Shown in pieces: positions 9,147 to 63,175 of a stretch of 64,000 nt of DNA. A program made the position numbers and the translations under genes. Source of the DNA: a virus. The DNA lies in IMG/VR virus record IMGVR_UViG_3300048080_000657; one strand, given 5' to 3'. Under the pieces are notes generated by a model that did not search any database, was not told the DNA's origin, and was given only the letters and a program-made list of their open reading frames with translations. Position 1 is the first letter of the stretch. Each line of letters opens with the position of its first letter.

Positions 9147-9361
9147 ATCACGAACGGAGGACTCGATGAGTCACAAAAGGATGCAGTGCCTGAGATGCTG
9201 GTCCCCTTGCGCTGATAACATGGCGCACTGCCTCAGGTGTCAGTTGGAGCGGGCGAGGCATGATCGTGCGCAAGAGATCGCTGACCGTCTCACAGATGCT
9301 CGGCTGCGCAGGCTCGCGATGGCAACGCGCAGCGAAGAGCCCCTCGTATAGCGGAGGACAC

Positions 9362-10346: not shown

Positions 10347-11138
10347 ATGAACATGAACCAGCGCTGGGAGGAAGGCCGTCCCCGGTGGCGGAGCGACCGC
10401 GAGGTGATCCGGCCCTCGGAGTACGAGGTCGTGCCGATGGCGGGAAAGGATCCCGTCGCGGTCTCATTCGTGGAGGCGCATCACTACTCGAGGTCGTTCC
10501 CCTCGGGCCGCTTTTCGTTCGGCCTGCACCGTCATGGAAGGCTCTCGGGCGTCGCGGTCTTCAGCCACCCGACGAACGACCTCACGCTCACGAACGTGTT
10601 CCCCTGCGACAGCCTCGAGGCGATCGAGCTTGGCCGCCTGGTCCTCCTCGACGAGATTCCGGGGAATGGGGAGAGCTGGTTCGTTTCGAGATGTTTCGAT
10701 CTCCTTCGAAAGGAAGGGATCCGCGGCGTAGTCAGCTTCAGCGACCCCATGAAGAGACGTGCGGCGGACGGCACGGTCGTCATGCCGGGCCACTGGGGAT
10801 GCGTCTACCAGAGCCTGAACGCCGTCTACACCGGCCGCGGCACCGCGCGCACGCTCCGTCTCTTCCAGGATGGCACCGTCTTCAACGAGCGGACGATCCA
10901 GAAGATCCGGAAGCAGGAGCGCGGCTGGGAAGCGGCCGTCGCGGGCTTGCAGGCACGTGGCGCCGGCCCCCTCGATGGCGAGCCGCGCGAGTGGCTCCGG
11001 ACCTGGCTGCCTCAGCTGACTCGCCCCCTCCGCCATGCGGGGAACCACCGGTACGTCTGGGCCCTTGACCGGCGGCTCTGCGGAGCCCTGCCGGCGCCGC
11101 TGCCCTACCCGAAGTTGATCGACGCGGAGGCCGCTTGA
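10347..11138 (+). CDS. Mom-family DNA modification protein (GNAT-like)
   Basis: FVEAHHYS, GVAVFSHP, IELGRLVLLD, ESWFVSRC, VVSFSDP, GHWGCVYQSLN match phage Mu Mom-like proteins as recalled. Confidence 0.78.
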   Translation: MNMNQRWEEGRPRWRSDREVIRPSEYEVVPMAGKDPVAVSFVEAHHYSRSFPSGRFSFGLHRHGRLSGVAVFSHPTNDLTLTNVFPCDSLEAIELGRLVLLDEIPGNGESWFVSRCFDLLRKEGIRGVVSFSDPMKRRAADGTVVMPGHWGCVYQSLNAVYTGRGTARTLRLFQDGTVFNERTIQKIRKQERGWEAAVAGLQARGAGPLDGEPREWLRTWLPQLTRPLRHAGNHRYVWALDRRLCGALPAPLPYPKLIDAEAA

Positions 11139-11425: not shown

Positions 11426-12539
11426 GGATGACGGGTCCCCAGGTGGGGCGCCGTCGTACTGCAGCAGCTGCGACAAGTTCGTCCGCGATGGCGCCGGCAA
11501 CCAGGAGCGAACGCCGCGGGGCAGGATCCTCAGGTTCTGCTGGGTGTGCTGGAAGAGGCGATGCGAGGCTGCGTCTGGGAAGAGTACGCGATAGGGATAA
11601 AACGACCATGAAACGCCGCAAGGTCTGGAAGCAATGCGACGGCTGTGGGCGCCGGGAGAAACTCGAAGGCGGGGTGCGCCATTGGTGCAAGTGCCACCCC
11701 GCAGGATTCGTGATGATTCCCGACGTGAGCCGTCAGCTCGCGGCCAGGGCTGTTGGGATGATGTGTGGGTTCGTGCGCAAGGAGGACAGATGAGCGTGCT
11801 GGGAGAGCCGTATCCGCACGACGGCGGCTGCTCGGAATGCCGCTCGCGCCAAGTCTGCAACGTCTGCGGCTACCTGCTCTCGGGAGGGGTCTGCACGAAT
11901 GGGCGATGCTTGTTCTGCCACGGCAGAGTGTGTACGCCCGGTGGGGAAACCGCCCCCGGTCACGGCTTCGGATCGCGTGGTGCCGCCGTGTTGGCGAGCT
12001 ACGAGATGCAGTCGCGTTAGTGGAGATTCATGAGATGAAACCTTACCTGTGGTGCCCGCACAAGGCTTGCGATGTCTACAAGTCTCCAGAGCAACTGTGC
12101 GACGTTTGCGAGGCGGTACGTCTTGAGGTTCGCACCGCCGTTGAGATGAACCTCGGCGAGGCACGAAAGAACATCCTGATCACGCTTCAAGGGCAGATGG
12201 ACAGAGTGATGAAGTCTGGTCTTTAGCTTCGATACGGGACTGAACACAATGATGATCTCGAAACCGGACGGCCATGAGCAGTGCTCTGTATCCACCGGAA
12301 TCTGTGATCGCCTTACGTTCGGTCGCGGCACCTTAGATTCCAACGGCTACTGGGCGATCCCCTGTGGCGAATGCGCCAGAAACTTCGAGAACGCCAATCC
12401 AAAGTACGGGGAATGTTGGCCTACCAAAAGCGATACTAGGTTATGTCCTCTGTGCGGCAGGACACGAGGGCTTAGGGCCTGCCCCTGTCATTGATGGCTT
12501 CATCGGTGAAATGGGATTGCCCACTGAAAGGACGGTCGG

Positions 12540-14225: not shown

Positions 14226-14816
14226 ATGAGACTGTCGACCTTCCCGCACCCGGATCTTGTATGGGCACCTCCACGCCGGCGCCTCGGCCAGTCGATGGAC
14301 GTTGCGGAGCTCCTCAGACAACAGGGTGCCATCGTGGATGTCGAGGTGGGGCCGCCGGCGTCGATTGCGGCGGCCATGCGAGAGAAGGGACAAACACCGC
14401 CAGCGCGCCAGATCGTGAAAGGCCTCGTAGACACCGGTGCGTCGATCTCCACGGTCGACGAAGGCATCGCGGTGTCCGCTGGCCTCCAGCCCACGGGGAC
14501 CGTGGAGCTCGGCGGCGTGGGTGGATCCGCACAGCGCACGGTCTATGCTGCCCGGTTCGGGTTGCCTCAGTACGGCGTCGAATTCGATCCGATCGAGATC
14601 GCCGGCGTATCGATCGCCTTCGCGCCCATCCAGGTCCTGATAGGCAGGGACGTCCTCAAGCGGCTTCAACTCGATTACAGTGGCCCGGAGGGGGCGTTCG
14701 CGCTCACGGAGAATGGTGCTCTCGGCATCTCTTCCGGGTTCCCGCTCGTGCCCGTGGCGATCGGCGCGGGGGCGATCGCGCTCACTGTCCTGTTAGCATC
14801 GGGCGTACTCCGCTAG
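14226..14816 (+). CDS. retropepsin-like (clan AA) aspartyl protease with C-terminal TM segment
   Basis: GLVDTGAS and LIGRDVL motifs; hydrophobic C-terminus. Confidence 0.85.
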   Translation: MRLSTFPHPDLVWAPPRRRLGQSMDVAELLRQQGAIVDVEVGPPASIAAAMREKGQTPPARQIVKGLVDTGASISTVDEGIAVSAGLQPTGTVELGGVGGSAQRTVYAARFGLPQYGVEFDPIEIAGVSIAFAPIQVLIGRDVLKRLQLDYSGPEGAFALTENGALGISSGFPLVPVAIGAGAIALTVLLASGVLR

Positions 14817-18841: not shown

Positions 18842-19360
18842 ATGAGCAGGATGCTGGTCGTGATGGTGGCAGGGTTGTTCATGTTTCAGGGCTGTTCCAC
18901 AGTCCGAGACATCCCCGACGAGGACCTCGCCCGTGGGATCAGGACGGCGGCGCGGGGCGCAGCGCAATATGGCCTCGGATACGTGCTCAACAAGGAGCCG
19001 GCCAAGGCTGCGGCGGTAGCAGACGGCGCCCGCCTGGCGGTGAAGGCCCTGCGGGAGAACGTGATTCCTGCCCTCTCGGGATCATCGACGCAGGAGGTTC
19101 TCCGCTCGGCCGTGGAGACGGCACTGGATGAGCTGAGCAAGAAACTGACCCCGTCCGTGGTCCTGGCCGTCCAGCTCGCGCTGGATGTCGTTGCAGCCAA
19201 CGTGACGCTGCCCGTCAACCCGGCCGACCGCCTGAGCGACCGAACGAAGGGAGCACTCTTGGCACTCTTCCAGGGACTGGCCGACGGGCTCGAGGCGGGG
19301 GCATCGCTCGCCCCCGTGCGAGACACGCCGCCGGCGAAGCTGTTCTGGCCGAAGAACTGA
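18842..19360 (+). CDS. predicted lipoprotein
   Basis: Signal peptide with lipobox FQG|C. Confidence 0.7.
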   Translation: MSRMLVVMVAGLFMFQGCSTVRDIPDEDLARGIRTAARGAAQYGLGYVLNKEPAKAAAVADGARLAVKALRENVIPALSGSSTQEVLRSAVETALDELSKKLTPSVVLAVQLALDVVAANVTLPVNPADRLSDRTKGALLALFQGLADGLEAGASLAPVRDTPPAKLFWPKN

Positions 19361-19587: not shown

Positions 19588-19609
19588 TTCCTGATACAAT
19601 CCAGATTGG

Positions 19610-20029
19610 ATGAAATGCTCAGGTTGTGCGAAGGAAGTGGACCCGAAGACCGAGGGCATCGAGCTCTGGGGGTCCTGGTTCTGCTCGGCTTGCTTCATCG
19701 GCCGCTCCCAGGGACTACATCGCGAGCTCACGCCGGAGGATGTAGAGTTGCTCAAGCTGATAGGGAGGGAACTGGCAGGCCTCCTGCCGGCGGATCTCCT
19801 CGAGATGATCTTGGCCGGCTACTACAAGCGGACGACGGGCCTTTCGACGCCACCGCCCAAGATGGAGACGGAGCGGTGCATTGGAGAGCTCCAGAGGATC
19901 ACGGCGTTCGCTTGCTTCAGGCAGGTTCTGAACCTGCTCAAGACCTGGCAGGACATGTTCTCGGGTTTCGTCCAGGAACAGGAGCAAGAGATCAGAGAGA
20001 AGATCCGGCGCCTAACGGAAGGGGAATAG
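19610..20029 (+). CDS. Zn-finger hypothetical protein
   Basis: CSGC...CSAC; extended -10 TGATACAAT at 19592. Confidence 0.65.
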   Translation: MKCSGCAKEVDPKTEGIELWGSWFCSACFIGRSQGLHRELTPEDVELLKLIGRELAGLLPADLLEMILAGYYKRTTGLSTPPPKMETERCIGELQRITAFACFRQVLNLLKTWQDMFSGFVQEQEQEIREKIRRLTEGE

Positions 20030-20081
20030 AGCTTTCACGACATGTAACATTCGTGCACGGGTGCATATGCTGATCGCAGGG

Positions 20082-20585
20082 ATGACACGGACCGCGGAGC
20101 TCAGCCCCTGCCGGCGCTACCGGTACACTCTGGGCCGACGCTGGGGCGGGAAGCCCGGAGGGGTAGCGTGGATCATGCTCAATCCATCGACGGCTGACGC
20201 GGAGCGCGACGATCCCACGATCAGGAGATGCATGACCTTTACCCAGCGGCTCGGATACGACGCGTTGGTGGTTGTGAACCTCTTTGCCTGGAGAGCCACC
20301 TATCCTCGGGACCTGATCGACGCGGAGGATCCCGTTGGCCCGGAGAACGGCCTGTGGGTCCGGCGTGCCTGCCACCAAGCCGCGCTCGTGGTCGCCGCCT
20401 GGGGCGCCCTCGAGAAGCCACTCCGGGGCGCCGCAGGGGTAATCTCAAGGATCATCCTGGACGACGGCTACAAGCTGAAGTGCCTCGGCACCACCAAGGA
20501 CGGCCAGCCGCGGCATCCGCTCTATATCGCCGCGGACACTCCCCTAGTTGATTGGGAGGCACTGCCCACGACCGATCCCGCTTGA
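20082..20585 (+). CDS. DUF1643 family protein
   Basis: S.CRRYRYTL, IMLNPSTAD...DDPTIRRC, VNLFA.RAT.P, G.PRHPLY. Confidence 0.88.
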   Translation: MTRTAELSPCRRYRYTLGRRWGGKPGGVAWIMLNPSTADAERDDPTIRRCMTFTQRLGYDALVVVNLFAWRATYPRDLIDAEDPVGPENGLWVRRACHQAALVVAAWGALEKPLRGAAGVISRIILDDGYKLKCLGTTKDGQPRHPLYIAADTPLVDWEALPTTDPA

Positions 20586-22041: not shown

Positions 22042-22280
22042 ACAAAAGGTGAGCGATGACCCAAGAGACGGTAGGCCCCGGGCCGGCCTTCAATGATGAG
22101 CTTAGCCGACTCGCGAAGACATGGGCGCCGCCTGGCAGGGCGAGCGATTTCTTGATGGACGTCACCAAGGTGGTGATATCTGCCATCCAGGCCGGACGGG
22201 CGGCCGCTCAGGGGGCCCAAGGAATCGTGGTCTGCGGGAAGTGCGGCAAGGTCGTTCACCAATGCGAACATTGGTGAGGC

Positions 22281-22559
22281 ATGAAGACCATCGGATACCG
22301 GCTGCAGGAGGATTTGTACCACAAAGGATGGGAAGCGCGGCAGACCATCGAGATGCCGTCCGGGGCGAAGATCCTGTCCGTCACCGTGCAGGCCGGGGTT
22401 CCGACGGTTTGGGCGCTGGTCAATCCAGAGGCTCCGACGGAAGCACGATACCTCTATATCACCGAAGGCGGGGCCGAACTGGGCGACGAGTTCGTCGGAC
22501 GGCGTTTCATCGGAACCCTTCCGGCCTTCAGGGACTCCGCGATGCACATATGGGAATAG
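22281..22559 (+). CDS. conserved phage hypothetical protein
   Basis: MKTI..Y.L...MP.GAKILSV.VQ.G.P.VWALV pattern common in phage small proteins. Confidence 0.65.
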   Translation: MKTIGYRLQEDLYHKGWEARQTIEMPSGAKILSVTVQAGVPTVWALVNPEAPTEARYLYITEGGAELGDEFVGRRFIGTLPAFRDSAMHIWE

Positions 22560-22610
22560 GTGATGTGAGGGTCTCGTGCGACCCGCACAGAATTATAGAA
22601 AGGTGAGGAG

Positions 22611-27431: not shown

Positions 27432-28728
27432 GGATTGACGTAATGAACGATCCAGAAGGCGGCTTCGCTTGTCCGTTGTGCGGCCTCGCGCACCCGCATA
27501 GGCACGGTGCCTCTAATGGGAAGCAGATTCGTCAACTCCACAAGGCCGCCGAGGTGACAAAGGAGCGCGGCTCGTGGAAAAGTGCATATCCATTGATTGT
27601 GGTCAACTGTCCAGAATGCGGTGGATGCTCGGCCTTCCATCGGTGCAATATCCGCGAGGACACTGACGGCTTCGCGGAGAACCAGAGGACTGGCAATAGA
27701 GTCATGAGATGCCCGCATTGCCGGAAGTTCATGGTTCTTCATCTGGTCGGCTGGAACCCAAAGGCCGGGATGGGTGTCGCGTAACTGACGAAACGTGAAT
27801 GGAGGGGATATGAGCGATCATAGCCATTGCTTCTGCCAGGCTATCACTGACGAGTACGACAAGTGTTGCTACTGCGGGGAGCCAAAGAAACGAGACAGGA
27901 AGCGATGCACGTCCCATTGCATGTGCCAGCGGTCTGAAAAGGATGGTCTAGCCTGGATCACTTGCTGTAAGTGTGGCGACTCAACCCGCCTCTTTACCGG
28001 GCCTGCGTAATCACGCTATAGCTCTGACGCATATGAGCAAAGACGAACCGATTAGCGAGGAGTATTTCGAGTATCGGCTCAACCACACGATGAAGGTTGG
28101 CGAATGGAGTGGGTTGAATGAAGCCGCCGGTCTCCTCATGAAGAAAGCCCTTGAGGCGTTTGAGCAGGGAGACAGGGAGGCACATCGGTACCGCAAACTC
28201 TCAAAGGAACTCAAGACGCTGGCAACCACGCGGCATCCTGGGCCGCCCAAATAGCTCATGCGCGGCTTAATTTTGAACGGTCTTGAGTGGCTCTGGGAAC
28301 TGCGCTCGCTCCCCGAGTGGGAGCGCCGCGGCGGTGTCGGCGAGGCCGCAAGCATGACGCGGTTCTACATCGGAGAGGCGTGGCTGTACTTCAAGGCAGC
28401 GTGGGACGTGTGGACGGAATAACCGGTACGTCTAAGGAGGGTAAGTGAGGATCGAAGTTGAGGCGCACCACATAATTTGCGGTGAGCGCTACAGTACATC
28501 ACGGTGTCCCATCGCCTTGGCCGTGACATCGAGGCTCCCGGCGGGCCGTTACGCCATCGTCGATCAAGAGAGCGTCTATGTGCGAGAGCGTGGCAGGCTT
28601 CCAGAAGAATTCGAGCAGGCGTTCCTGCTTCCAGAAGTGGCGCGAAAATTTGTAAAAAAGTACGACGCACAGGGCCCCGTTTGGCCATTCGCGTTCGAGA
28701 TGGACGACACAGGCGAAAGGAGACAGTC

Positions 28729-28980
28729 ATGAATAAGGCACTATGCTTGGCATTCCTCTGCTGGTTAGGTCTCTGCAGCGTTGGGTGTGACGAGGGAGGT
28801 AAAGGAGACGGGGCGCAGAAGAGCAGGACGACCCTCGGCGTGTTCTCGGGGGTGGACATCAGGACTATCGAGCACGACAAGCATTTGTTCGTAGTGGGGT
28901 ACACCGGGAGTACGGAGGGTGGGCTGTCGATCCTGCATCACCCGGCCTGCCCCTGCGGAACGCTCAAGCCAGAAAAGTGA
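28729..28980 (+). CDS. predicted secreted protein or lipoprotein
   Basis: Hydrophobic N-terminus ending SVG|C. Confidence 0.55.
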   Translation: MNKALCLAFLCWLGLCSVGCDEGGKGDGAQKSRTTLGVFSGVDIRTIEHDKHLFVVGYTGSTEGGLSILHHPACPCGTLKPEK

Positions 28981-35555: not shown

Positions 35556-36192
35556 GCGATCCACATCAAACAGACGAAAGGTGAGGTCACGATGGGAACT
35601 CCGGTGATGTGTGGGCGGCACGACTACATGGGCTTCGAGCCGTGTCCGCGTTGCAAGGCCGTCGGGGCCTTGGCCGCCAATGTGCTGGTCGAGGCAAGGA
35701 TGCTTCGGGAGATTTACGAGAAGTCCCCGATGCCGCTGGAAGCTACGTCGCTGAATCGGGCGATGAAGAGCGTCGTGGACGCGATCCGTACCTTCGACAC
35801 ATCGCCCGAGGCGCGCTCATAGAATCGTCGAAAGGTGAGGATATGACGCCGGAGCGTTTTGGCGAAATCAGAGAACGAAGCCGCTACGCCAACGGAGGCT
35901 TCGCTGGCCTGAGCGAGCAGGAAGCCGAAGAACTGATTGCAGAGGTCGAACGGCTCAAGGACGAACTCCAGCGTGCATTCCAGCGCGAAGACTGTTGGCG
36001 CAACGGCAACGCCCTTCTGCGGCGCGTCGAGGTCCACCTGGTCGACCGCCGCAAGATGGAACCTCGCCACTCGCGGGAGAACCACACATGCCCAGAGTGC
36101 GAGACGCTGGCCGAGTTGAGGCTCGCGCGAAACGAATAACCAGAGATGAAGCTGCCCAGAGATCACGAATCCGTGGAAAGGTGAGGGACGGC

Positions 36193-39401: not shown

Positions 39402-39457
39402 GACGAGATGACGCGACCCACGCTCTTCAGGACATCACAGCACCGGAAGGGTGAGCA

Positions 39458-40417
39458 ATGAGCGAGTGGAAGGTTCAGGTCGTCAAGGTCGGGGCGCTTA
39501 CCAAGCATCCGAACGCGGATCGGCTGCTCCTCACCCAAGTCTTCGATTACCCGGTCATCACGGCGATCGGGGAACACAAGGAAGGGGACCTCGCCGTCTA
39601 CGTCCCGGTCGACAGCGTCGTGCCGGCGGACGATCCTCGCTGGGTGTTCCTCCAGGGGCACCTTCGGATCAAGGCACGAAAGCTCCGCGGAATCTTCTCG
39701 ATGGGCCTCCTAACGAAGGCCGATCCGGACATGAAGGAGAGCGAAATAGTCGCGGAGCGCCTCCGCATCACGAAATACGAGCCACCGGAGCCGGCCACGA
39801 CCGGCGGGGAGGCCGAGAAGTGCCCGTTCGAGTGGCCGAAGTACACGGATCTCGAAAGCATCCGGCGCTATCCGGAGGTCCTCACCGAAGGCGAAGAGGT
39901 GGTCATCACGGAAAAGGTCCACGGCACGTCTTCGAGATATGTCTGGAAGGACGGCCGGCTCTGGGTCGGCTCCCATAAGGAGGTCAAGCGAGAGTGCAAG
40001 GAATCCGCCTACTGGAAGGCGGCTGTCCAGATCGACCTCGCTAGGCGCCTTGAAACGATGCCAAGCATCGCGATCTACGGCGAGGTCTACGGTTGGGTCC
40101 AGGACCTCCGCTACGGCCACACCCCCGGAAAGGTGAGCTTGGTCCTTTTCGATGCGATGGATCTCTCTACGCTGCGGTATCTCGATGTGGACGACTTCTT
40201 GGTGCTCGCGAAGAAGTTTGAACTGCCAACGGTCCCGATCCTCTACCGCGGCCCTTGGAAGCAGGATCTTCGCGCCTTGGCGGAGGGGAAGACGATGCTC
40301 GGCGCCGACCATGTCCGGGAAGGCTTCGTCGTGCGGCCCCTGAAGGAACGCTTCGATGAGCGCATCCAGCGCGTCGTTCTCAAGTACCATGGCGAAGGGT
40401 ATCTTCTGAAGGCATAG
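39458..40417 (+). CDS. RNA ligase (ATP), DRB0094/Rnl2-like family
   Basis: N-terminal HPNADRL OB domain; TEKVHGTS; YGEVYG; REGFVV; LKY. Confidence 0.88.
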   Translation: MSEWKVQVVKVGALTKHPNADRLLLTQVFDYPVITAIGEHKEGDLAVYVPVDSVVPADDPRWVFLQGHLRIKARKLRGIFSMGLLTKADPDMKESEIVAERLRITKYEPPEPATTGGEAEKCPFEWPKYTDLESIRRYPEVLTEGEEVVITEKVHGTSSRYVWKDGRLWVGSHKEVKRECKESAYWKAAVQIDLARRLETMPSIAIYGEVYGWVQDLRYGHTPGKVSLVLFDAMDLSTLRYLDVDDFLVLAKKFELPTVPILYRGPWKQDLRALAEGKTMLGADHVREGFVVRPLKERFDERIQRVVLKYHGEGYLLKA

Positions 40418-41097: not shown

Positions 41098-41313
41098 ATG
41101 ATGAACGATTTAAGCGGGATCGTCGGGGACGTCTACGAAGATCCAAGTACCCATTGGATCATGTTGCGGATTGATGCCTGTGACTGTCACGGCCCCTCAG
41201 TGGCGTCACGGCATCTTTTGCGTGTCAGGGAGCTTCCAGTAGATGAAAAGTGGCTGGTGGACAGACGGGGGAAGAGGATTTGTGTCCAGACTGTTGTCTT
41301 TGATCTTTCATGA
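41098..41313 (+). CDS. cassette hypothetical protein (paralog of 46810..47025)
   Basis: VYEDP.THWIMLRID.C.CHG.SV. Confidence 0.75.
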   Translation: MMNDLSGIVGDVYEDPSTHWIMLRIDACDCHGPSVASRHLLRVRELPVDEKWLVDRRGKRICVQTVVFDLS

Positions 41314-41944
41314 TCACCGAAGGACTGAAAGGTGAGGAGGCTACAATGCTAATTTGGCTGGCTTGCCTGCTCCTGGGGCACAAGACCGTCAGCAAGGTCG
41401 CCATTGGCGAAAAGTACGACTACATCAATCCGATAACTGGGCTCCCGGACAAGGGGCAGGATTTCACCTTTGTCCGGCTCGGCTTCTGTGCGCGGTGCGG
41501 TCATAAGGTCCACGACGGGAAGGCGTACCCGATGGTGTCCAAACAAGACCTCGCAGAGCACCAATCTACTGAAAGATGAGGTTCGGGCCATGAATGAGAC
41601 GCAGATCGCTAAGTTGAAGACCATCCATGGGGACTATCGTATAGACTGGCCCGACGCGATATTTGCGCCTTGGGATGCTCCTCCGATTGGCATGCGGGTT
41701 CGGCGTGGGAACATGACGGGCAAGGTGATTGGCATAGACGATCGCGAGGAACTTCCCGACCGTGTCCACGGAGAATGCCTGAGCTGCTCCTGCCCGAATT
41801 TGAATCCTTGCTTCGGATGGTGGAAGATCGAATCGGAGCAGTACATGAAGGACGGGAAGCCGCAGGTGCTGCTCGAGTATCCGCCAGCTTGGGTTCCGGC
41901 CGAGACGAGTAGGTCACTAATCAACTGAAAAGTGAGGTAAGACG

Positions 41945-42073
41945 ATGGAAGTCCTGTTTGTAATAGCCGGATTCGGGGTTGGTTTTCTCGTCGCGCTCTA
42001 CCTTACGGCCAGGGTGCGGAGAAGCCACCAAACCAATCAACCGAAAAGTGAGCGCATAACGGAGGAAAAATGA
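41945..42073 (+). CDS. 42-aa membrane peptide (paralog of 49059..49166)
   Basis: MEVLFVIAGFGVGFLVALYL; translated by hand, below the ORF-track cutoff. Confidence 0.65.
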   Translation: MEVLFVIAGFGVGFLVALYLTARVRRSHQTNQPKSERITEEK

Positions 42074-42444
42074 AGCTGCAAGACCTACCTCGGGACTTGG
42101 TCGGCGGAGCACTTGTAGAGTACAAGAATAACTGCGGGTTCGATCTTGAGTACGGTCGGGCCACGATCACCGACATGGGCATGGACGGCGAGATGTTCTT
42201 CATCAAGACCGACCGGAAGGACGCCTTCCTGACCCAGAACGTCTCCCCGATGGTTGAGAGGATGGGTTTCACGGCCGAAGTCCAGAAGCAGGGAGAGATC
42301 TACTTGATTCGCTCCTCGATGGGGTGGCGCTACGCACTCGCCCCCAAAGGTGTCGAGATTCCCCAGCGGCCCCACTGGCTGGCCGTGAGCGACGACGAGT
42401 TCGACAACTCTGTGAAGAAGACTCTAATGGGACGGTCAGACTAA
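42070..42444 (+). CDS. cassette hypothetical protein
   Basis: SD GGAGG; stop directly before site 42445. Confidence 0.65.
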   Translation: MKLQDLPRDLVGGALVEYKNNCGFDLEYGRATITDMGMDGEMFFIKTDRKDAFLTQNVSPMVERMGFTAEVQKQGEIYLIRSSMGWRYALAPKGVEIPQRPHWLAVSDDEFDNSVKKTLMGRSD

Positions 42445-42519
42445 TCACGAATCAACTAAAAGGTGAGGACGGCACGGAAGAGTGCCAGTTCATGTACAGG
42501 CAGATAAAGGAGAACGCCC

Positions 42520-43587
42520 ATGCGCTTTGACGTCTCGAATGTTCGGGTCGAAAGCCACGCCGCTCGGCTGTCCTCGCATGTGGATCAGATGAAGCGGATG
42601 GTCGGTTCCAGCGTCGAGTCCGTTTCGAAGCCGCCCAAAGGGCAGATCATCTGCAGCTCGGCTGGGAACCAGCTCGTGGAAGCCGTCGGCGTGGCGTTCG
42701 CCAAGCACTACCCGCTCGTTCTGTCCCCGGACGCCATCTGGCTCACCGTGGCCCAGGGCCTCGCCAACCACATCAACCGGCACGCCGAGGACGTCCGGAA
42801 GAAGTTCGTCGCCCACCAAGGCAAGGCGCAGATCGTGATCCAGCGCGACGGCTTCATCAAGGGCGCTCAGGACAACGACTGGGAGGGGGTGTTCGCGGAG
42901 TTCTCGGACAAGATCAAGAGGCACATCGGGGACGCCAACCACAAGATGATCGTGGCCGACTTCTCCACGACAGGAGCCATGGAGCGCGCCGCCTCCGAAG
43001 TCGTCCTCATTGACGCGATGCAGTCCTACTTCGAATACGGGGAGATAACGTGTTGCGGCATCCCGAACATCGAGCTGACCGGCACGGCCGAGGACTGGGA
43101 GCGGCTCCGGGACAAGGTGAACGGCTGGGTCTTCGATGGGGTGGCCGATCTTTCCTGGTGGACGACGCCGCTCAAGCGGGTGTTAGACGCCTTCGTGGCG
43201 GCGTCCAAGGGAGTCATCGACCGGGAGTGGTGGGAGTCCTTCTACAAGGAGGACTCCGGATCTGGATCCGGAGCCGTCTCCAAGGTCTCCGGCTGGATCA
43301 ACTGGCTCTTCCCGTACACGAACGACTGGCAGAAGAAGCTCACCCGTAACAGCAAGGTCGGCGTGTCGGGCTTGGAGTACGGCGACGGCCTGCAGGAAAG
43401 CGACTACCCGGGTTCGCTCTCCAAGGCCCCATTCGAGTGGAACTACTTCGGCAACCTCTTCGACATGGAGCTGCTGGCCGGGGTGAGTGCCGTGGCGCAG
43501 GATCAGACGACCTGCGCGATCACGCCGAACGTTGGCTGGGCCGTCCGCGAGATCGGCAAGACGAAGAAGCCCAAGATCAAGTGGTAG
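42520..43587 (+). CDS. DUF4419 family protein
   Basis: AF..HYPLVLSPDAIWL...QG, ADFSTT, M.SYFEY..CGIP.I.L.GT.EDW..L, VSGWI. Confidence 0.82.
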   Translation: MRFDVSNVRVESHAARLSSHVDQMKRMVGSSVESVSKPPKGQIICSSAGNQLVEAVGVAFAKHYPLVLSPDAIWLTVAQGLANHINRHAEDVRKKFVAHQGKAQIVIQRDGFIKGAQDNDWEGVFAEFSDKIKRHIGDANHKMIVADFSTTGAMERAASEVVLIDAMQSYFEYGEITCCGIPNIELTGTAEDWERLRDKVNGWVFDGVADLSWWTTPLKRVLDAFVAASKGVIDREWWESFYKEDSGSGSGAVSKVSGWINWLFPYTNDWQKKLTRNSKVGVSGLEYGDGLQESDYPGSLSKAPFEWNYFGNLFDMELLAGVSAVAQDQTTCAITPNVGWAVREIGKTKKPKIKW

Positions 43588-43633
43588 GACGCGCCAGATC
43601 ACGAATCTACTAAAAGGTGAGGAATAGCGCGCT

Positions 43634-43798
43634 ATGAACATAAAGCACCGCCATCAGATCACGTTTCGGATGAAGCCCGGCGAGGTGCGTGCTCTAGATC
43701 GCTTGGCCAAGCGGCAGGAAATCAGTCGGGCCGAACTGGTGCGGCGCATTCTCCTGAAGGCGTGTCCGGGCTGGAAGCACGATTCCACTAAAAGGTGA
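43634..43798 (+). CDS. ribbon-helix-helix (CopG-like) protein
   Basis: ITFRMKPGEVRALDRLAKRQEISRAELVRRIL; hand-translated. Confidence 0.7.
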   Translation: MNIKHRHQITFRMKPGEVRALDRLAKRQEISRAELVRRILLKACPGWKHDSTKR

Positions 43799-44383
43799 GG
43801 AATATGCCCATCACGCCAGCGCCCATAGGTGAGGACATTCGGTTGTTCTGCCCTCGATGCAATAAAGAGGTGGCGAAGATTCATGGCGCCCTGTTCGAGA
43901 GGATCAAGAAGGACTACCCGATGTTCTGCGTCTACCACCCGGAATGCGAGGGCTTGAAAGCTGGAGAAGTCTTGAGGCTTCCGTCCGACTGGCTAGAGGA
44001 TCCTTCGGATGGCCCGGAGTGCGTGGGTGGAGCGCACCAATCCACCAAAAGGTGAGGTCGGCTCAGAAACCGATAGAAGAGGGCTAAGGAGAACAGAATG
44101 AACGGAAGCCTAAATACTCCGGGGTTCAGAGCGGCCTACCGCAAAGGTTACGAAGCAGGGAAAGCCGGAAGGTCGGATAGGGGATGTCCCTACAAGGCCA
44201 AGAGACCGACGGGCCGCTACACGTTTGCGGAGGTCATGCTTTCTAGGTGGATGGAAGGGTGGAGACATGGAAGGGCCGGGATTCGGTCCCGTCTCGTTGC
44301 GGAAGGTCACCAAGCCGATTCGCCAGTGGCACAGAAGGTAGAAAGTGCGGATCACCAATCCCCTAAAAGGTGAGGAAAACCGG

Positions 44384-45367
44384 ATGAACATGAGCGCATG
44401 GATGATGCTCGGGTTTGGGATCATGGTCCTACTGTTTTACATCGCCATCGTCATCAGGTACCGACCGCGCACGAATTCAGCGGCCGAGCCGGCGAACTCC
44501 CATCCGGGCCGGGTGATCCCGCCCGGCATGCCAATCATCCGCGCCCTCAAGGAGGCGGGCGGCGATCTGCGCGAGCTGCAGAGCCAAGCCATCACGCCCG
44601 CCGGCGGCCGTCTGCCGTTCAGGTCTGGACAGTGGCTCCGCAACAAGCTGGACGGCACCCTCGTGGCGTATGTGGGCCCGAGCGGACTACCGGATTACAA
44701 CTGGCTCGAGGCGTCCGTCCTCCGTCCTTATCTCGACCACGCCGACCACTACGAACCCGCGTTCCCCCGTGAGGGCGAGTGGTGGCAGAAGAGGCCGTGC
44801 CTCAAGATACATCCCCTACCGAAGGACACTGCATGGTGCGCCAGCCCGCTCCAATGGTGCTACACGGTCGGCGACTACACGAGCCCGAGGTGCGGCACAT
44901 CAAAGCCGGGTTGGGATATGATGTTCGCCAGTGAGCGGAACGCCTGCGAGTGCGGCTGCCTCGCGCCCGTCAACTTCGGCTTTGGGAAGGGGCTGACCGC
45001 GTTCCCTCGCATGCGCATTGTCAATGACCATGCCAAGATCGCGGAGCGACCCCGGTTCCGTGTGGGCCAGTGGGTGCGCGTCCGCTCCACTCGGTTCCTC
45101 GCCAAGCTGGTCAGTGCAGGGGGAGAAGGCTGGTGGAGCGTCGCCGAGTCTGTCGACCAGCTTAGCCATGTGGGGACTCCTGAGAGCAACCTTGAGCCCG
45201 CCCTGCCACGCGAGGGCGAGTGGTGGGAGAGCGATCACGTCGGCATCACGCGGGAGCCGTTTCAGTGGGAACGCCAGGGCGTCTTCGCCACCTTCGGTGA
45301 TGCATATCTCGCTCTCTGCGTCGATGAGGGCTGTTTGCGTCCTGTCAACTTCGGGCGAGGAAAGTGA
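44384..45367 (+). CDS. membrane-anchored protein with an internally duplicated domain
   Basis: N-terminal TM; FR.GQW.R...EPA.PREGEWW...CL.PVNFG.G occurs twice. Confidence 0.7.
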   Translation: MNMSAWMMLGFGIMVLLFYIAIVIRYRPRTNSAAEPANSHPGRVIPPGMPIIRALKEAGGDLRELQSQAITPAGGRLPFRSGQWLRNKLDGTLVAYVGPSGLPDYNWLEASVLRPYLDHADHYEPAFPREGEWWQKRPCLKIHPLPKDTAWCASPLQWCYTVGDYTSPRCGTSKPGWDMMFASERNACECGCLAPVNFGFGKGLTAFPRMRIVNDHAKIAERPRFRVGQWVRVRSTRFLAKLVSAGGEGWWSVAESVDQLSHVGTPESNLEPALPREGEWWESDHVGITREPFQWERQGVFATFGDAYLALCVDEGCLRPVNFGRGK

Positions 45368-45405
45368 GCCGAGTTTCAGATCACCAATCCTCTGTTTAGT
45401 GAGCT

Positions 45406-45963
45406 GTGAAGAATAAACCGTGCCTGGGGAAGTGGAGCCGTCACACTTGGAAGACACTTCCCAATGCCCGCCAACTCTGCCAGCGCCCAGGGTGCATGAA
45501 ACTCAATCCTCTCGGAGTTCCTGCATTCGTACGGTTCTGGGATCACGTTGAACTACACGGAAAGTGCTGGTTATACACCGGCCAAAAGAATGCGGATGGT
45601 TATGGGCTGTGGACCATCAAGGAAGCTGGCATTAAGAGGAATGTCAAGGCCCACCGCTATTCATTCTTCCTCTATTATGGATATCTACCCTATGGCGCAG
45701 AAGAGCTGGATCATACTTGCGACAACCGAGCGTGCGTAAATCCGGATCACCTTACAGTCAAGACCCATCTAAAGAATATCAGGCGGATGAAGAGGTTTCA
45801 TTTTGCGAAACTGACTCCGCAGATAGCTCATGAGATTCGGAAACTCACAGGAGCTGGAGGTAGTGTAAAAGACATCGCGAAGCGTTACAGAGTTTCCGAG
45901 ATTACGATATATCGCATTCGCAGTGGGATCACGTGGAAGGTTGACGCATCACCAAAGCCATGA
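45406..45963 (+). CDS. HNH (His-Me) endonuclease
   Basis: CWLYTG..N.DGYG; KAHRYS; ELDHTCDNRACVNPDHL. Confidence 0.88.
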   Translation: MKNKPCLGKWSRHTWKTLPNARQLCQRPGCMKLNPLGVPAFVRFWDHVELHGKCWLYTGQKNADGYGLWTIKEAGIKRNVKAHRYSFFLYYGYLPYGAEELDHTCDNRACVNPDHLTVKTHLKNIRRMKRFHFAKLTPQIAHEIRKLTGAGGSVKDIAKRYRVSEITIYRIRSGITWKVDASPKP

Positions 45964-46809
45964 AAGGTGAGGACGAGATGATGAACTCCGACGCGGAGCG
46001 TGAAGGTGCCCATAAGGAAAGAGACAGGATCCTGAAGGCTCTCAAGGTCTGGCGGACACAGTACGAATCCTCGATGCCAGGGCCTTATGACCTGAACGCC
46101 ATCTGCCGGACCTGTGTGGATTCGGCCATTAGGATTGTCGAGCAGGAATGCCCTGAAAGGTGAACGGGATGAACCTCGAAGACGTTGATTTCAGGAATCT
46201 CGATCCGCTGGAGACGATCAAGAAACTCAGGTCCTTCGGGAAGCCCGGACTTGAGCCTCTGGTTCTGTGGATTGCCAGGGGTTACGCCTACGACAAGGCG
46301 AATCACGCCGTTCGCGTCTCGATTGCCGATGGCGAGAGGGAGGCGGAAGGATTGATTCGCCAGGCGGGATCACCAAATCCCCGAAAGGTGAGGTCAGCAA
46401 CGTAAGCCATGAGCCACAAGAGGAGGCGTCAGTTCACCTGTGGAGCTTGCTGCAAGAGGTTTAACTGGAGTGAGCGAGTGAAGGAGTTTCTGGGTCGTTG
46501 GCATTGTGGGCCGTGCTGGAGTAGGTGGACTTCAAGAAACCTGACGACGAATCACACAAGCCCTGAAAGGTGAGGCTGCGGATGAAGCGGAACGCTATCG
46601 CGGAATTGGAAATGCGCAGGAGAGCTCTCAGGGAGTGCTACACCGAACGCCGTATGTCCTTGGCCGAGGGGATGCTGGAGGGATTCTGGATCATCGGGCT
46701 TCTAACCCAGAATGAATGCGTGAAATGGCAGGACAGGCTTTACGAGATTCGTAAGCAGTGGCTGGTTCGAAGGGAAATCGAATCACAGAATCCATAAAAG
46801 GTGAAGACG

Positions 46810-47025
46810 ATGGAGACGGAACTGAACGGCGTCATTGGCGCTGTTTATGAGGACCCTGCTACCCACTGGATCATGTTGCGGATTGACGACTGCGAATGTC
46901 ATGGGGCTTCTGTAGTCTTGCCGCATGTGCTTCGTATCAGAGAGCTTCCCGTGGACGAGAAATGGCTCGCAGACCGACGAGGGAAGAGGATCTGTGTCCA
47001 GACATCCGTGCTGGTGGAGCAGTAA
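46810..47025 (+). CDS. cassette hypothetical protein (paralog of 41098..41313)
   Basis: See paralog. Confidence 0.75.
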   Translation: METELNGVIGAVYEDPATHWIMLRIDDCECHGASVVLPHVLRIRELPVDEKWLADRRGKRICVQTSVLVEQ

Positions 47026-49058
47026 GGTCACCAAAGCGATAAAAGGTGAGGTGGAAAGATGCGCTTCTGGAGGCCGAAGTCTTGGTGGAAGACGCCCTTC
47101 CCGTTCTTCCGGCTCTTGATGGAGCCCTTCGTCTCGATCATTGTCGAGGAGCCTGTTAGCTACAAGGAGAATGGCTATCCGTTCAGCGTGCGCCTCTCTT
47201 TTTTAGCCGGACGTCCCTGGCTAAGGCTTCGGCTCTGGTACTGGCAGATCAGCATCATTGCCGACATCCTCCGTGGAATTGGGTTCAGAAACCGGTGGTA
47301 TTGGCGCTGGTGGCGCACGTCCCCGGAGGGATGGTTCACGATGGGGCAGTGGGAAGAATCACGGAAGCGATGAAAGGTGAGGTGATGAGATCGAGGCCGA
47401 AGTGGACGGTGTGCTACAACATCGTGAGCCTGGAGTCCGACCGGTGGATCGGTCACGGCTGGGAATTCTTCGATGAGGACGCCCAAGCGATCTCATGCTA
47501 CGAGCGGCACAACAAGGCGGGCAACTGCGCCACCAAGCGGCGGTACTACCATCCGACCGACTATGAGCATCTGGGAGCGGCCCACCGGTTCTGGGCCGAA
47601 CGGGAGCTCTCAGAGCACCAATCTATTGAAAGGGCCAAGGAACTCCTTGAGGATCTTGCTCACAGAACTAATGAAAGGTGAGGTCCGTGAAACCTAAGAA
47701 GCACGTTCACGAATTCGGTCCGTGGCATTGCAGGAACGGTTGCCCGGTGCAGATTCGGCTGTGCTTGGTCGATGGGTGCCGGGCGCGGATGGACATGGAC
47801 GGGAAGGTTAGGGTAGACCGTAAATCCGACGATCCGCACCAATCTATTGAAAGGTGACATCATGGATCAGACAGAGATGGACGCGAAGAATCGGTTCCTA
47901 GTCGAGCAGTTCCTTGAACGGCTGGCGCCAGGCGAGGTCATCGCGGCCGTCATGACGCTCCGGGTCGACGGGAAGGGCTTCGCCTGGTACCCGGCCGTCG
48001 AACGGCAGTCCGGCGCGCTGCTGGACCTGCTCCGCAAGAAGCCGGATGAGGTCTACATCGAGCGGCGCTCATAGATGTCTTGAAAAGTGAGGAAGCATAC
48101 ATGAAGAATCTGCTCGCGATCCTACTAGCGGTGGTCTTGGTCGGCTGCGAGACGAAGGCAGAACCGACCGTCACGGGTCCGTGGAAGAAGCTCGGGGAAG
48201 TCTCCAATGGGGCCGGAACGGGCACGGTCTTCTGGACCGTGAACACGGAGACTGGAGACCGGGTGTACGTCCTGGTCGGGGGGCATGTGGGCGGCGTGTA
48301 CGTACTCCCCGGAAAGACCCCGGCGGAATCACCGAACCGTTGAAAAGTGAGGCGGCATAATGAATCACGTCCCTTGTAGCCCTTGTACCTGCGGATGCAG
48401 AGTCTTCGGGATCACCGCTTTGGTTGACGCCAGAGGAGAACCTTGGTCTTCGCATATGCTGACATGCATCCGTTGTGGGAAGCGGTGGATCCCCAATGGC
48501 CCAGACCTCACCGCGGCCGACAAATGGCTCGACATGTTTGCTCCTCCCGATCACCAATCTGTTGAAAGGTGATGCAATGCCCGAAATGACACCAGAAGAT
48601 CGCGAGGAACTGATCCGGCTGGATAGGACGACGCCTGAAGAAGTTCAGGAGTTGATCCGGCGAGAGCGCATTTGCACGGCCCGGACGCAGATTCGTGAGG
48701 CGAAGTCTCGCCTTCAGGATCTCCAGGCGGAAGCTTTCGCTGAGATGGAGAAGATAAGGAAATGCACCGAACTCCTTCATGAACTTGGAGCCGATCCTGA
48801 CGGGTGGGACTAGGGAAACGCGCCAATCTGCTAAAAGGTGACATATGGGAGCGAAGTGCATCAGTCATCCGGGCCATGAGCTGGCATTCCGGGTTCCTCC
48901 TGATCCGGATTGTCGATGCCCAATCTGTCTTCGCCATCGGGCGGAGGCTCGGCGCGTGGGACGATGCTCCGAGGCCTGCGTCGTGTGTTTTGACGCGATT
49001 GATAGGGGTGTGAATCCTCCAGTCGATTCATCGAAGGCCTGAAAGGTGAGGTAAGACG

Positions 49059-49166
49059 ATGGAAGTCCTGTTTGTAATGGCCGGATTCGGGCTTGGTTTT
49101 CTCGTCGCGCTCTGCCTTCATGAGCGGTCCGGATGCGGAGAAGCACACCAATCTGCCGAAAGGTGA
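49059..49166 (+). CDS. 35-aa membrane peptide (paralog of 41945..42073)
   Basis: MEVLFVMAGFGLGFLVALCL; stop supplied by site 49145. Confidence 0.65.
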   Translation: MEVLFVMAGFGLGFLVALCLHERSGCGEAHQSAER

Positions 49167-50310
49167 GCCGGAAACATGGACAAGCCTTGCGAGAAGTGCG
49201 GTCACCCAGGGCCGTTCATCCCGAAGAGCATTCCCGATCCCGATCCGCGGAAGGGGATGAAGGTCTGCTGTACCGCTTGCGGAAAGGACATCACCTACGA
49301 CACCCATCAATGGAGGCACGAGCCCGATGGCCGCTGGGTCTGTTGCGATTGTATGGCTTCGACGAAAGCGCTCCGCGATATGACGCACAAATCCGCTGAA
49401 AGGTGAGGAGAATGAGCACTCGCGAGGAAAGACGGGCAGAGTTCGATGCGGCACTGAAAGCAGCCTTGAACTTGAGGCCCCTCTATGCTGCCATGGATGA
49501 GGAAGACCGGGTCGCACTTGTCAGGCGCTATCCGGATCCCGATCGATCACTCGGCGCGCTCTTCAAGGGCCCGCTGATCCAGTTGTTCGATCGGGCCGAT
49601 GACCTCCGGGCCCTCGATCACCAATCCGCAGAAAGGTGAGGCCCATGAAAGCGATCTTGAGTCCGGAAGAGAGGGCGGCTGGGTATTGCGATTGTTGCAG
49701 GAATTGCACACCCGAGAGGATGTGCCCAGCCTGCAAACAGATCGCTGAGGAGATCCGGGGAGCGCTTCAAGACGACCGGAAGCGCATCATCGCCGCTTTC
49801 GAGACGGCATGGGCTGCCCTAGGTGACAAGGATTGGGCTTGGAAAGAATCCCTGCTCTTCAAGATCAGGACGGGCCCTGACGAGACGCGTCAATCCGTAG
49901 AAAGGTGAGCTGGAAGTGGAACGAAGGACGATCCGCGGCGATCGCTCACTGGCGCCCTACTGGCACAGGAGCCAGACATTGAAGAACACGGAGCGGCTCT
50001 ATTGCCCCTGTGGATGCTTGGTCTACGACGGGCCGAAGCCGAACTTCGCGCGGATCAGCTGCCCGAAGTGTAAGAGGGTGACGGATGTCCCCAGGAATCC
50101 GCGCCAATCCGCCAAAAGGTGAGGGATTATGAACACGCCCATGGAAAAACGGATTCTAGAGAGCGTTGACCGCATCGACAAGCATGCCCAAGCGATCAGG
50201 TCTTTGCTCTTTGAAATCAGGAGGCTGTCCGTCGAGAAAGGCAACTGCAAGGATATCTGGCAGTTGGCCAACGAAGCTCTGAAGCACATTTCAGCCGAAA
50301 GGTGAGCGCG

Positions 50311-60921: not shown

Positions 60922-61553
60922 GAGCGGAAAGGTGATGTGGGGAAGAACTTCCAGTGGGAGCGCCTCCAGAACATGAGAATTTATCTCGAGGAGAAAGGCC
61001 ACCGCTTCAGTGGGTTTCCGATGCAGTGCCAGAAGTGCGGCATCCTACTCGGGGTTCTTTCGGCTATGCTGGAGAAGGCGCCGGCCTGTGTGCCGCCGGC
61101 GCAGGATCACCAAAGGGCGGATCGGTGCGCGTATGACGCCAGAAGAGGAAAAGATCAGACGTGAGATGGCGGAGGTGAAAACCTTTACGCTTAATAGATG
61201 TCCGGGCTGCGGCGAGTTGCTTGGGTCTGGCTGGCAAACACGCAACGAAGCGATCCTTGAGTTCGCAAGGCACACACTTGGGTGTAAGGGCGTAAAAATG
61301 CTTGGAGCGCGCACCAAATCCTAGAAAGATGAGGAAAGGAAACAGCATGATGACGACGAATCAGGCGATCAAGGAAGCCACACGAGGCGTGCTCTCGAGC
61401 CGGGAATACCGCGCGCAGGTGATGGCAATCCTCGAAACTCGGCTTGAGACTGCGATCACCGAAGGTGACGACGAGGGGGCTTACGCTTATGCCGCAGGAA
61501 TCGAGGCTCTCAAGATCGAACCGCGCACCGAATCGTAGAAAGGTGATGTGGCC

Positions 61554-61811
61554 ATGACCTGCGACCAGTGCGGCTCCCCAATGGCGAACGTGGGGCGCCA
61601 GATCCAGCGGGGACACCGGGATGGCTGGATGGACGGCTGGGTGTGCCCGACGCGCCGCTGCCCAGGCTATGGGACCACCGATTTTCAACATTCCGTGACC
61701 CGCCGCTGGCCCGGGATGACGTTGATGTCGGAGGTACCGCTCCACGCAATGATTCTAGGTGCCGTGAAGTTCAGAGACGCATCGAAGGCAAGGATGAGTT
61801 TAAGGAGATAG
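61554..61811 (+). CDS. Zn-finger cassette protein (paralog of 62272..62499)
   Basis: CDQCG..MANVGRQI..GH...WMDGWVCP.RRCPGYGTTD. Confidence 0.75.
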   Translation: MTCDQCGSPMANVGRQIQRGHRDGWMDGWVCPTRRCPGYGTTDFQHSVTRRWPGMTLMSEVPLHAMILGAVKFRDASKARMSLRR

Positions 61812-62271
61812 ACATGGATAGGCGCATCTTCATGGCCGCGACCGCGGCCGCCCTCGTGGGCACGCTTCCCGTGGAGGCGAAGTCCGGGCGGGAGTTCCTG
61901 GGCAGCGCGGAGATCACGGGCGCGAAGGCCTGGAGGGTGGACGGCGTCCCGGGGCGCTCGAGCTACGCCGTCAGGGAGCAGGACGGCAGGCAGTACGTCG
62001 ACGTCTACGGCGATCCCGGCGTGCGCGGCCGGGTGAGGACGACGATCCGGTACACCTAGCGGCTCGCGATGATTCTCCAGCGTCTGGGGCTCTTGGTGTG
62101 TGTCGCCATAGCCGGCCTCAATGCGTGGTTCCGGAAGGGGACAGGTGAGGCGGCGCTGGACACGCCCGAGGGGCGGTGGATCCTCTTCGGAGTCATAGTC
62201 GCGCTCGCAGTGCTGCTCTGGGGCTTGGGCCGCGAGCGCGGCTCACCGAAGACGTGAAAGGTGAGGCGAGT

Positions 62272-62499
62272 ATGATGTGCGACCAGTGCGGCTTGGGGAT
62301 GGCGAACGTGGGGCGCCAGATCAAGCCAGGCCATCCAGAGATCTGGATGGACGGATGGGTCTGCCCGAAGCGCCGCTGCCCAGGCTACGGGACCACCGAC
62401 CACCGGGATTCCGTGAGCCGTTGGCCTGGGATGACGCTGATGCCGGAGGCGCCGCTCCACGCGATGATCCGAGGAGCGCTGAAGTTCAGGGACGCGTAG
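62272..62499 (+). CDS. Zn-finger cassette protein (paralog of 61554..61811)
   Basis: See paralog. Confidence 0.75.
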   Translation: MMCDQCGLGMANVGRQIKPGHPEIWMDGWVCPKRRCPGYGTTDHRDSVSRWPGMTLMPEAPLHAMIRGALKFRDA

Positions 62500-63175
62500 A
62501 AGACGTAAAAGGTGAGGTCAGCAATTGGGCCACGTTGCGGGAAACCGTGATGCCGCCCCGTGAAGAGGGGCGGTGGTTGGCAGCGAACCCACACTGCCTA
62601 ACGTCGGACCTGCGGGCGAGACGCGAGATTAGTGCCGCCAAGCGGCCACGGTTTCCCGCAATAGGGCACTGAAGAGGTAAAAGGTGAGGTCATGAACGAT
62701 CCAAGGAAACAAAAGTGCGTGGAGTGCGAGAAGAAACTCCATGGGGGCCCGAGCTGCACCAAGCACGGTATGGCCGGATTGGCGACCTTGGCAGAGGCCA
62801 TCTTGAAGGTGGCCAGGAATACTCGCCGAAGAGGCAACTGGTGAGCACGATGGTTCATTACATGAACGTCATCACACCGGGCCCGCTTATCATCGTGCGG
62901 ACCCCCTACCCGCTACCCCGTTGGAGGCTCGTACTTAAAGCCCTGACGCCGGTCGTGCAATCGCATGGTTATAAGCAGAAGGACATCAGCGCGATCGAGG
63001 GTTTGCTCCCATATCCGGACGATCCATGGAGCCCCGAGGAGACACAGTTCGCTTCCCGGATCGAGAAGGCATTTGCGGGAGACCCCGAGGTTCTACCCCG
63101 CTTTTGGCTGTACGATTGGAAGGCCGGGGAGTTCGTGGTGGCGCGAGAGCCTCATAGAAGAGATAAAAGGTGAGG

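Follow-up and report, generated by a model that had tools for sequence, protein, structure and literature searches.

Two short stretches in the 64,000-nucleotide (nt) piece of DNA deposited as IMG/VR virus record IMGVR_UViG_3300048080_000657 (below, the window) carry paralogous copies of a tiny orphan gene coding for a membrane peptide. We hold with moderate confidence that this gene was copied or shuffled through short homology residing in sequence modules at the gene junctions, in a way resembling the promoter-early stem-loop (PeSL) cassettes of T4-type phages. The source is an uncultured jumbo phage. The window proteins are recorded on a contig of 216,145 base pairs (bp), and the run with the stretch is a sediment metagenome; no RNA run was among those listed for it. 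All window genes are located on the plus strand, to which all feature coordinates below refer. A preliminary description of the window, made from its letters, had noticed a near-identical cassette following the sites at 41914 and 49028 and had seen in it a discrete moving cassette of an integron-like array.

Duplication of the peptide gene

The sites consist of a left arm, a variable core and a right arm. Self-BLAST of the window aligned 41925-42053 (copy A) with 49039-49168 (copy B) at 84% identity over 134 columns (E value 1.8e-35); the sequences quoted in the preliminary description were present at both addresses, and the near-identity of the cassettes was borne out. The longest exact run was 33 nt (41932-41964, identical to 49046-49078). 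A tract of 74 nt, starting from CTGAAA in the upstream site, had 71/74 identities between 41925-41998 and 49039-49112, and in copy A it comprises the right arm, the 8-nt spacer GTAAGACG and ATG with the next 17 codons (18 in total). Outside the unit the identities were at random level, namely 12/40 in the 5' flank and 11/40 in the flank 3' of GTGAGC. The duplicated stretch ended within the flanking sites and the neighbouring genes lay outside the homology, so the pairwise alignment agreed with the earlier claims that identity drops at the sites and that the homology is bounded by them. The difference in flanking cores, CAACTG and CAACCG at address A against GGCCTG and CTGCCG at address B, was likewise found as described. 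When the 62 nt following each site were compared for all 3081 site pairs in the window, copies A and B had an identity of 0.97, with the next best pair at 0.50 and the mean at 0.27, and they were the single outlier. The duplication is far beyond chance. It was uneven along its length, with 3/74 differences in the 5' part and 8/45 in the 3' part together with two insertions or deletions (indels; Fisher p = 0.02). Either the 3' tail has been drifting freely, or a recent conversion renewed the 5' part alone.

The gene of copy A (41945-42073) encodes 42 amino acids, with one hydrophobic helix at the N-terminus followed by a basic tail; its stop and the next start codon overlap in ATGA. The gene of copy B (49059-49166) encodes 35 amino acids and ends as ...HQSAER at a TGA within the next module. 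The hydrophobic N-terminal stretch is 19 residues long in each copy, with a Kyte-Doolittle mean of 2.3-2.4, and both products are predicted to be single-pass membrane peptides. The open reading frames (ORFs) of both lengths were confirmed, but the earlier statement that they had been missed by the ORF track was only partly correct, as the 42-residue product is called in a public protein set and only the 35-residue copy seems to be missed. The first 20 codons, before the first indel, contained three differences, all of them non-synonymous (I/M, V/L and Y/C, of which the first two are conservative), and no synonymous ones. Past codon 20 the two indels place about 22 nt in different frames, and the shared frame is regained at CAC CAA, where the motif-encoded tail starts. 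Coding constraint is favoured by this restoration of the frame in both copies, as well as by the strongly hydrophobic stretch and the conservative substitutions. In the module downstream of copy A, the left arm carries a 5-nt tandem repeat, ACCAA-ACCAA, at 42027-42036. The N14 spacing is lost through this repeat, and the ORF is carried past the motif TGA until it overlaps the next start codon; had there been one ACCAA only, the frame would have closed as ...SHQSTEK at the motif TGA, as in many genes here.

Searches for relatives of the peptide returned little beyond itself. An exact DNA pattern had no match in viral contigs, tblastn against all fetched loci gave nothing credible, a word-indexed search of 5.8 billion proteins had the window's own 42-residue product as its sole match, and exhaustive phmmer against 1.84 billion representatives returned the query only. 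PHROGs contained no family for either peptide or for eight neighbours.

The module upstream of copy A (41914-41937) has the left arm TCAC at 41914-41917, the core CAACTG and the right arm GAAAAGTGAGG, the Shine-Dalgarno-like arm in a rare A form. This module contains the stop region of the upstream gene (41590-41928) and is predicted to act as the ribosome-binding site of copy A. The module downstream of copy A (42025-42053; core CAACCG, right arm GAAAAGTGAGC) is degenerate; the next gene relies on a GGAGG of its own at 42061-42065 and makes no use of this module for ribosome binding. At the other address, copy B is preceded by a module at 49028-49051 (left arm TCAT, core GGCCTG, right arm GAAAGGTGAGG) and followed by one at 49145-49168 (left arm ACAC, core CTGCCG, right arm GAAAGGTGAGC), the latter being the putative ribosome-binding site of the gene 49176-49406. 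The downstream core at each address resembled its local neighbours and not its counterpart at the other copy: AATCAACCGA at address A stands next to AATCAACTGA and AATCAACTAA, and AATCTGCCGA at address B next to AATCTGCTAA and AATCCGCTGA. Such local-looking cores fit crossovers in the conserved arms with the cores left behind.

Three further observations were made around the copies. The variable part of the site before copy B (49042, GAAGGCCTGA) was an outlier in a smooth local series, AATCTG.. followed by AATCCG... From 49035 (AGGCCTGAAAGG...) onward, a contig in each of the two sediment runs matched the window and was preceded by other letters (..AGAAGCGCACAT; 11-12 letters seen). The match at 49034/49035 hints that in another strain the copy B unit, or one related to it, has a different neighbour on its upstream side. 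A resemblance of the spacer before copy A (TAAGACGATG) to the one that follows the upstream gene's homologue in contig L124 (TAGACGATG) depended on an ambiguous alignment and was dropped.

The module as a probable translation signal

About 80 same-strand modules of the form (ga)TCAC(c/g)AA-N7-RAAAGGTGAGG are arrayed before small orphan genes between 20900 and 64000. The consensus was derived from 157 instances in the window and its relatives, with about 7 variable nt between (ga)TCAC(c/g)AA and RAAAGGTGAGG. The right-arm pattern alone gave 51 matches against 1.2 expected, 50 of them on the plus strand, and a looser scan for TCAC-N14-GTGA gave about 90 copies on the same strand. Site density was high at 20.9-25 kilobases (kb) and 32-64 kb, and the larger enzyme genes had few sites among them. 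The modules span 22-26 nt with a stem of 4-5 bp. Their best-conserved part was a Shine-Dalgarno-like sequence (form AAAGGTGAGG) at a fixed distance from start codons, which mostly lay 4-10 nt past GTGA. The upstream ORF ended within the site in 67/84 cases, and in 33/84 exactly at the TGA of GGTGA. Unrelated proteins at 33 sites (e.g., 49639, 49908, and 40657) share a motif-encoded C-terminal tail of the type (D)H(Q/E)SxER, because this TGA serves as their stop codon.

The arms formed a weak hairpin (-2.5 to -6.6 kcal/mol, mean pairing probability 0.46). Variants of the left arm were mostly TCAT, GCAC, and GCGC, with only 3-4 pairs kept, and no convincing covariation between the arms was found. 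A fifth covarying stem pair, suggested by TCACT with AGTGA at 41914, failed at the other AAAAGTGAG sites and was rejected. Neither the unit ends nor the whole unit folded better than shuffled RNA (z-scores -0.9 and +0.2), and the sites had no match among Rfam families. Between 40 and 51 kb, sigma-70-like promoters numbered 3 (3.4 expected) and terminator-like sites 2 (8.5 expected), and none of either lay at the motif. Judging from this composition and position, the sites would primarily be ribosome-binding and stop-start modules in a promoter-free polycistronic operon of orphan genes. The module is probably a translational-coupling device, in which the Shine-Dalgarno sequence, masked by the weak hairpin, would be freed when a terminating ribosome opens it.

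In their variable 10 nt, neighbouring sites were more alike than distant ones, with 3.77 against 5.57 mismatches, a value reached in 0/5000 permutations (window 20900-64000). This likeness hints at local duplication of sites or at conversion between neighbours.

Gain, loss and replacement of units in relatives

Presence, absence and replacement of single units with joints inside the arms were observed directly between closely related contigs (numbered L001 onwards). Contigs L066 and L078 were 98-99% identical, with 413 extra bp, corresponding to one unit, in L066; the crossover lay within AAGGTGA, as judged from three junction sequences, and a perfect module was regenerated. L063 and L041 were 93-96% identical on both sides of unrelated genes of 134 and 174 nt; the homology stopped at the last base of AAAGGTGAG and resumed in the next core. 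In L022, about 225 extra bp followed directly after AAAGGTGAGGC. The unit of the gene 49412-49639, next but one after copy B, was absent in a 99%-identical strain: a contig from a second sediment metagenome matched 49150-49397 and 49631-49897 at 99% and skipped exactly the 233 nt in between (49398-49630). At this joint (49397->49631), 11 nt (GAAAGGTGAGG) fit both sides. The sharing of 7-11 nt at the joints together with the regenerated module is as expected from recombination or copy-choice between short direct repeats. The earlier proposal that the stretch from site to site is gained, lost or swapped as a unit within the clade is supported by the L066/L078 and L063/L041 comparisons and by the joint 49397->49631.

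Bounded units were also seen elsewhere. The unit of the DUF4419 gene (42450-43622) was found, module to module, at about 95% identity in a relative with unrelated flanks, and no viral relative was found in a search with the DUF4419 protein. A second paralogue pair in the window, pair Y (61523-61787 and 62241-62502), was 79% identical over 266 nt with the homology extending from module to module. A third, pair X (41098-41313 and 46810-47025), had 72% amino-acid identity and is collinear with the peptide pair. Third codon positions differed at 38/67 in pair X and at 1/20 in the peptide pair (Fisher p = 2e-5), and the proportion of synonymous differences (pS) in pair X was 0.82; pair X is much more diverged and older than the peptide pair. 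Many joints with sides of 20-26 nt, obtained when contigs of the source runs were matched to the window, were set aside as likely cross-matches of the motif, and no back-joints with long sides were seen in these assemblies.

One co-occurring relative, very abundant at a contig depth of 442 against about 85, joined 44990 to 45944. It lacked the C-terminal extension of the gene 44384-45367 and the whole HNH homing-endonuclease gene 45406-45963, and this difference looks like an insertion polymorphism of the homing endonuclease.

The phage and its motif-free relatives

Pfam domains in the window included ThyX, two RNA ligases, an SNF2 helicase, an RNase T-type exonuclease, DUF5131, a Mom-like protein, a DNA methylase, PAPS-reductase-like proteins, an HNH homing endonuclease and a LAGLIDADG-interrupted ATPase. 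Phage hallmark genes were present and no tRNAs were found in the window. Megablast of 40-50 kb against deposited phage genomes gave no match, and exact-product look-ups of three window proteins found none on record. The ORF of 945 amino acids at 997-3834 has a HerA/DUF87-type ATPase N-terminus interrupted by a LAGLIDADG domain and probably represents an intein-bearing ATPase. Two PAPS-reductase-like genes and the Mom-like gene are clustered at 7387-11138, with DUF5131 and the DNA methylase nearby, and this region is probably a DNA-modification cluster.

The motif was also present in metagenomic phage contigs without DNA similarity to the window (L023, L056, L061, and L063), and in L066, which had short patches of similarity only. 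Its retention in such contigs speaks for a strong constraint on the motif. Pattern scans of viral contigs and reference genomes returned single, chance-level matches only. Relatives by gene content (L001, L124, and L125-L128) had no full TCAC-N14-GTGA module and used overlapping stop-start codons or ordinary AGGAG-type sites. L001, an IMG/VR contig of 236 kb whose RNA ligase was 74% identical in amino acids, had no motif. The neighbours of copy A were found in L124 and L125-L128 at 72-77% nucleotide identity. The downstream neighbour of copy A, an orphan gene of 124 amino acids (42070-42444), had homologues at 77% nucleotide identity in L125-L128; the homology to L125 extended from the ATG to 2 nt short of the end of the stop codon, and in L126-L128 it ended 36 nt earlier, at 42408. 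From these comparisons the motif appears to be a recent clade-specific innovation over an older gene pool.

Origin of the two copies

The mechanism that we infer, and with it the direction of copying, would be as follows. The recurring arms of 8-11 nt at gene junctions would serve as short homology patches, within which phage or host recombination, or copy-choice during replication, crosses over. In this way single genes with their spacers could be lost, duplicated, inserted or swapped, both junctions falling inside modules, and the peptide gene would have been copied by such an arm crossover. The recent event, whether the copying itself or a later conversion, would have extended at least over the right arm, the spacer and the codons of the helix, and the variable cores at each address would have stayed mostly local. 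Copy A would later have gained its 5-nt tandem duplication, by which its downstream module was disabled and its tail lengthened. The left arm (TCACC) can pair weakly with the right arm AAAGGTGAGG, and the module joins the upstream stop to the Shine-Dalgarno-like arm.

Several observations weigh against this reading. The copies are not a clean pair, since a near-identical 5' tract is followed by a diverged and frame-shifted 3' tract, and both right arms at address A are of the rare AAAAGTGAG variant while both at address B are AAAGGTGAG. The uneven identity and the distribution of arm variants by address are not predicted by one clean copy event, and later conversion or mutation is needed. The likeness of neighbouring cores is not explained by simple arm-to-arm crossover. 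The peptide gene was seen in no other genome searched, which leaves movement of this unit between genomes unsupported. Pair X ceased to be homologous about 35 nt short of the downstream module, two joints (44990 and 47606) fell within genes, and among the approximately seven events examined several breakpoints were off the modules. Homology also stopped at or close to gene borders in the motif-free L124 and L125-L128. Breakpoints could therefore come to lie at junctions through nothing more than selection for intact genes, and the position of a border is no proof that the site is the agent. Finally, the search for recombinases covered 64 of 216 kb only.

The gene-bounded homology leads to the explanation that we take most seriously among the alternatives, though we still regard it as unlikely. 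Random illegitimate joining anywhere, followed by selection for intact genes, is the standard account of phage mosaicism in the school of Hendrix and Hatfull; the motif would have no mechanistic part, and junctions would fall in an intergenic space that consists of the motif only. Homologues of neighbour genes bounded at or near ATG and stop in motif-free phages are in line with it, as are the breakpoints inside genes in some motif-bearing relatives. However, two presence/absence joints regenerated a perfect module with 7-11 nt common to both parents, which is the signature of direct-repeat recombination.

Duplication of a longer segment would dispense with movement of the peptide unit alone. 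One old block would have held gene X (41098/46810) and the peptide gene (41945/49059), with later turnover of whatever lay between. The two pairs are indeed collinear and close, 0.85 kb and 2.25 kb apart. But the contrast in third positions and in synonymous differences, of which the peptide pair has 0, separates them in age, and no similarity was found among the genes between the two pairs. The explanation, which we consider improbable, holds only if a recent conversion renewed the 5' part of the peptide gene.

The integron-like system suggested in the preliminary description was not upheld, and we give it very little probability. It would require 22-nt pseudo-palindromes to be cut and rejoined by a dedicated phage recombinase, with cassettes excised, possibly as circles, and re-inserted. 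The presence of about 90 sites in one orientation at gene junctions, and the gain and loss of site-bounded units, would suit such a system, and the likeness of neighbouring sites could reflect duplication of the site on insertion. The sites are, however, ribosome-binding and stop-start modules by their make-up, with a 4-bp stem, a length of 22-26 nt unlike that of attC, and the Shine-Dalgarno-like sequence near start codons as their best-conserved part; the unit ends are not structured hairpins. The joints overlap in 7-11 nt of the conserved right arm and not at a defined position in the core, homology is gene-bounded in motif-free relatives too, and the pair is no clean copy. No integrase, resolvase, transposase or other site-specific recombinase was detected by Pfam in the scanned plus-strand ORFs of at least 150 amino acids, a scan that excluded the minus-strand ORFs (overlapping plus-strand genes) and the plus-strand frames of this size at 5622-6119, 10385-11068, 11765-12226, 14226-14816, 18842-19360, 19606-20073, 20061-20585, 22121-22606, 28504-28980, 35609-36139, 39451-39978, 41470-41928, 61568-62059, and 62715-63173. 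The only nuclease-type mobile gene in the scanned ORFs was the HNH homing endonuclease. Equally doubtful is a dedicated gene-capture system of the jumbo phage, in which an enzyme encoded outside the window, or replication-linked copying, inserts units into the array of about 100 sites and duplicates the resident site; if true, it would explain why neighbouring sites look like successive copies, the peptide gene would be a product caught in the act, and the whole would be a phage analogue of the integron whose recombination site doubles as a ribosome-binding site.

Comparison with known systems

Motif-assisted shuffling at the modules has its closest parallel in the PeSL mobile regulatory cassettes of T4-type phages (Arbiol et al., 2010, PMC2839356; Comeau et al., 2014, PMC4122927), where orphan genes are lost, gained and replaced by recombination at repeated motifs; no dedicated integrase is present, and homologous recombination has been proposed (PMC2839356). 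In both cases the small orphan genes of hyperplastic or variable regions in large phage genomes have short conserved regulatory motifs at their flanks, and relatives differ by motif-bounded insertion, deletion and replacement with crossovers inside the motifs, here in 7-11 nt of the right arm. PeSLs are, however, sigma-70 early promoters with stable terminator stem-loops, whereas the present module has no promoter or terminator features; it combines a ribosome-binding with a stop-start element, has a weak stem of 4-5 bp and recurs at nearly every gene of a polycistronic block. Mini-circles have been shown experimentally for PeSLs.

In position and make-up the module appears nearer to the start-associated sequences (SAS and ESAS) of Cluster K mycobacteriophages (Pope et al., 2011, PMC3203893) than to PeSLs. 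SAS are asymmetric conserved sequences of about 13 nt with a Shine-Dalgarno core, placed in one orientation 3-7 nt before start codons and confined to the non-structural half of the genome, often with the upstream stop codon inside; the modules here share the asymmetry, the Shine-Dalgarno core, the single orientation and the placement shortly before start codons of non-structural genes. About half of them have an upstream inverted repeat, and they are thought to act in translation (PMC3203893). They belong to another phage group and differ in sequence (GGGATAGGAGCCC, against RAAAGGTGAGG with an upstream TCAC(C/G)AA here) and in number (10-20 sites in a genome, as opposed to about 90 or more in the 64 kb here). 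The inverted repeats of ESAS are 17 bp long and do not pair with the Shine-Dalgarno sequence, and SAS have so far not been connected with gene turnover.

With integrons (attC/attI) the array shares promoterless small genes in the same orientation between imperfectly palindromic sites, and single-gene units that are gained and lost. attC sites are, in contrast, 57-141 nt long with R''-L''/L'-R' boxes, an architecture that the present sites do not have. No IntI-type recombinase was found in the scanned ORFs, the site is itself the putative ribosome-binding site, the array lies in a jumbo phage genome of lytic type, and the microhomology of the joints is in the conserved arm. Boundary (linker) sequences of lambdoid phages, as known from the module theory of Susskind and Botstein and from Clark and co-workers (2001), are reportedly also short and conserved, located between genes, and used to exchange optional genes one at a time. 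They are said to be sporadic and family-specific, unlike one motif repeated about 100 times, and to have no fixed relation to the ribosome-binding site.

Implications for gene turnover in large phages

Little is understood as yet of how the many orphan genes of large phages are gained and turned over, and to our knowledge the T4-type PeSLs are so far the only concrete motif-based mechanism. On our best reading the motif and the clade described here are new, and motif-assisted modular shuffling at ribosome-binding modules takes the place of the integron-like view. In this clade of uncultured sediment phages a different motif, a ribosome-binding and stop-start module, would serve as the junction for gain, loss and duplication of single genes. 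Close relatives by gene content that have no motif (L001 and L124-L128) provide a natural comparison for turnover rates. The nucleotide-exact joints between strains suggest that any expression signal, once highly repeated, can serve as a scaffold for recombination as well, in which case a shuffled gene would arrive ready for translation.

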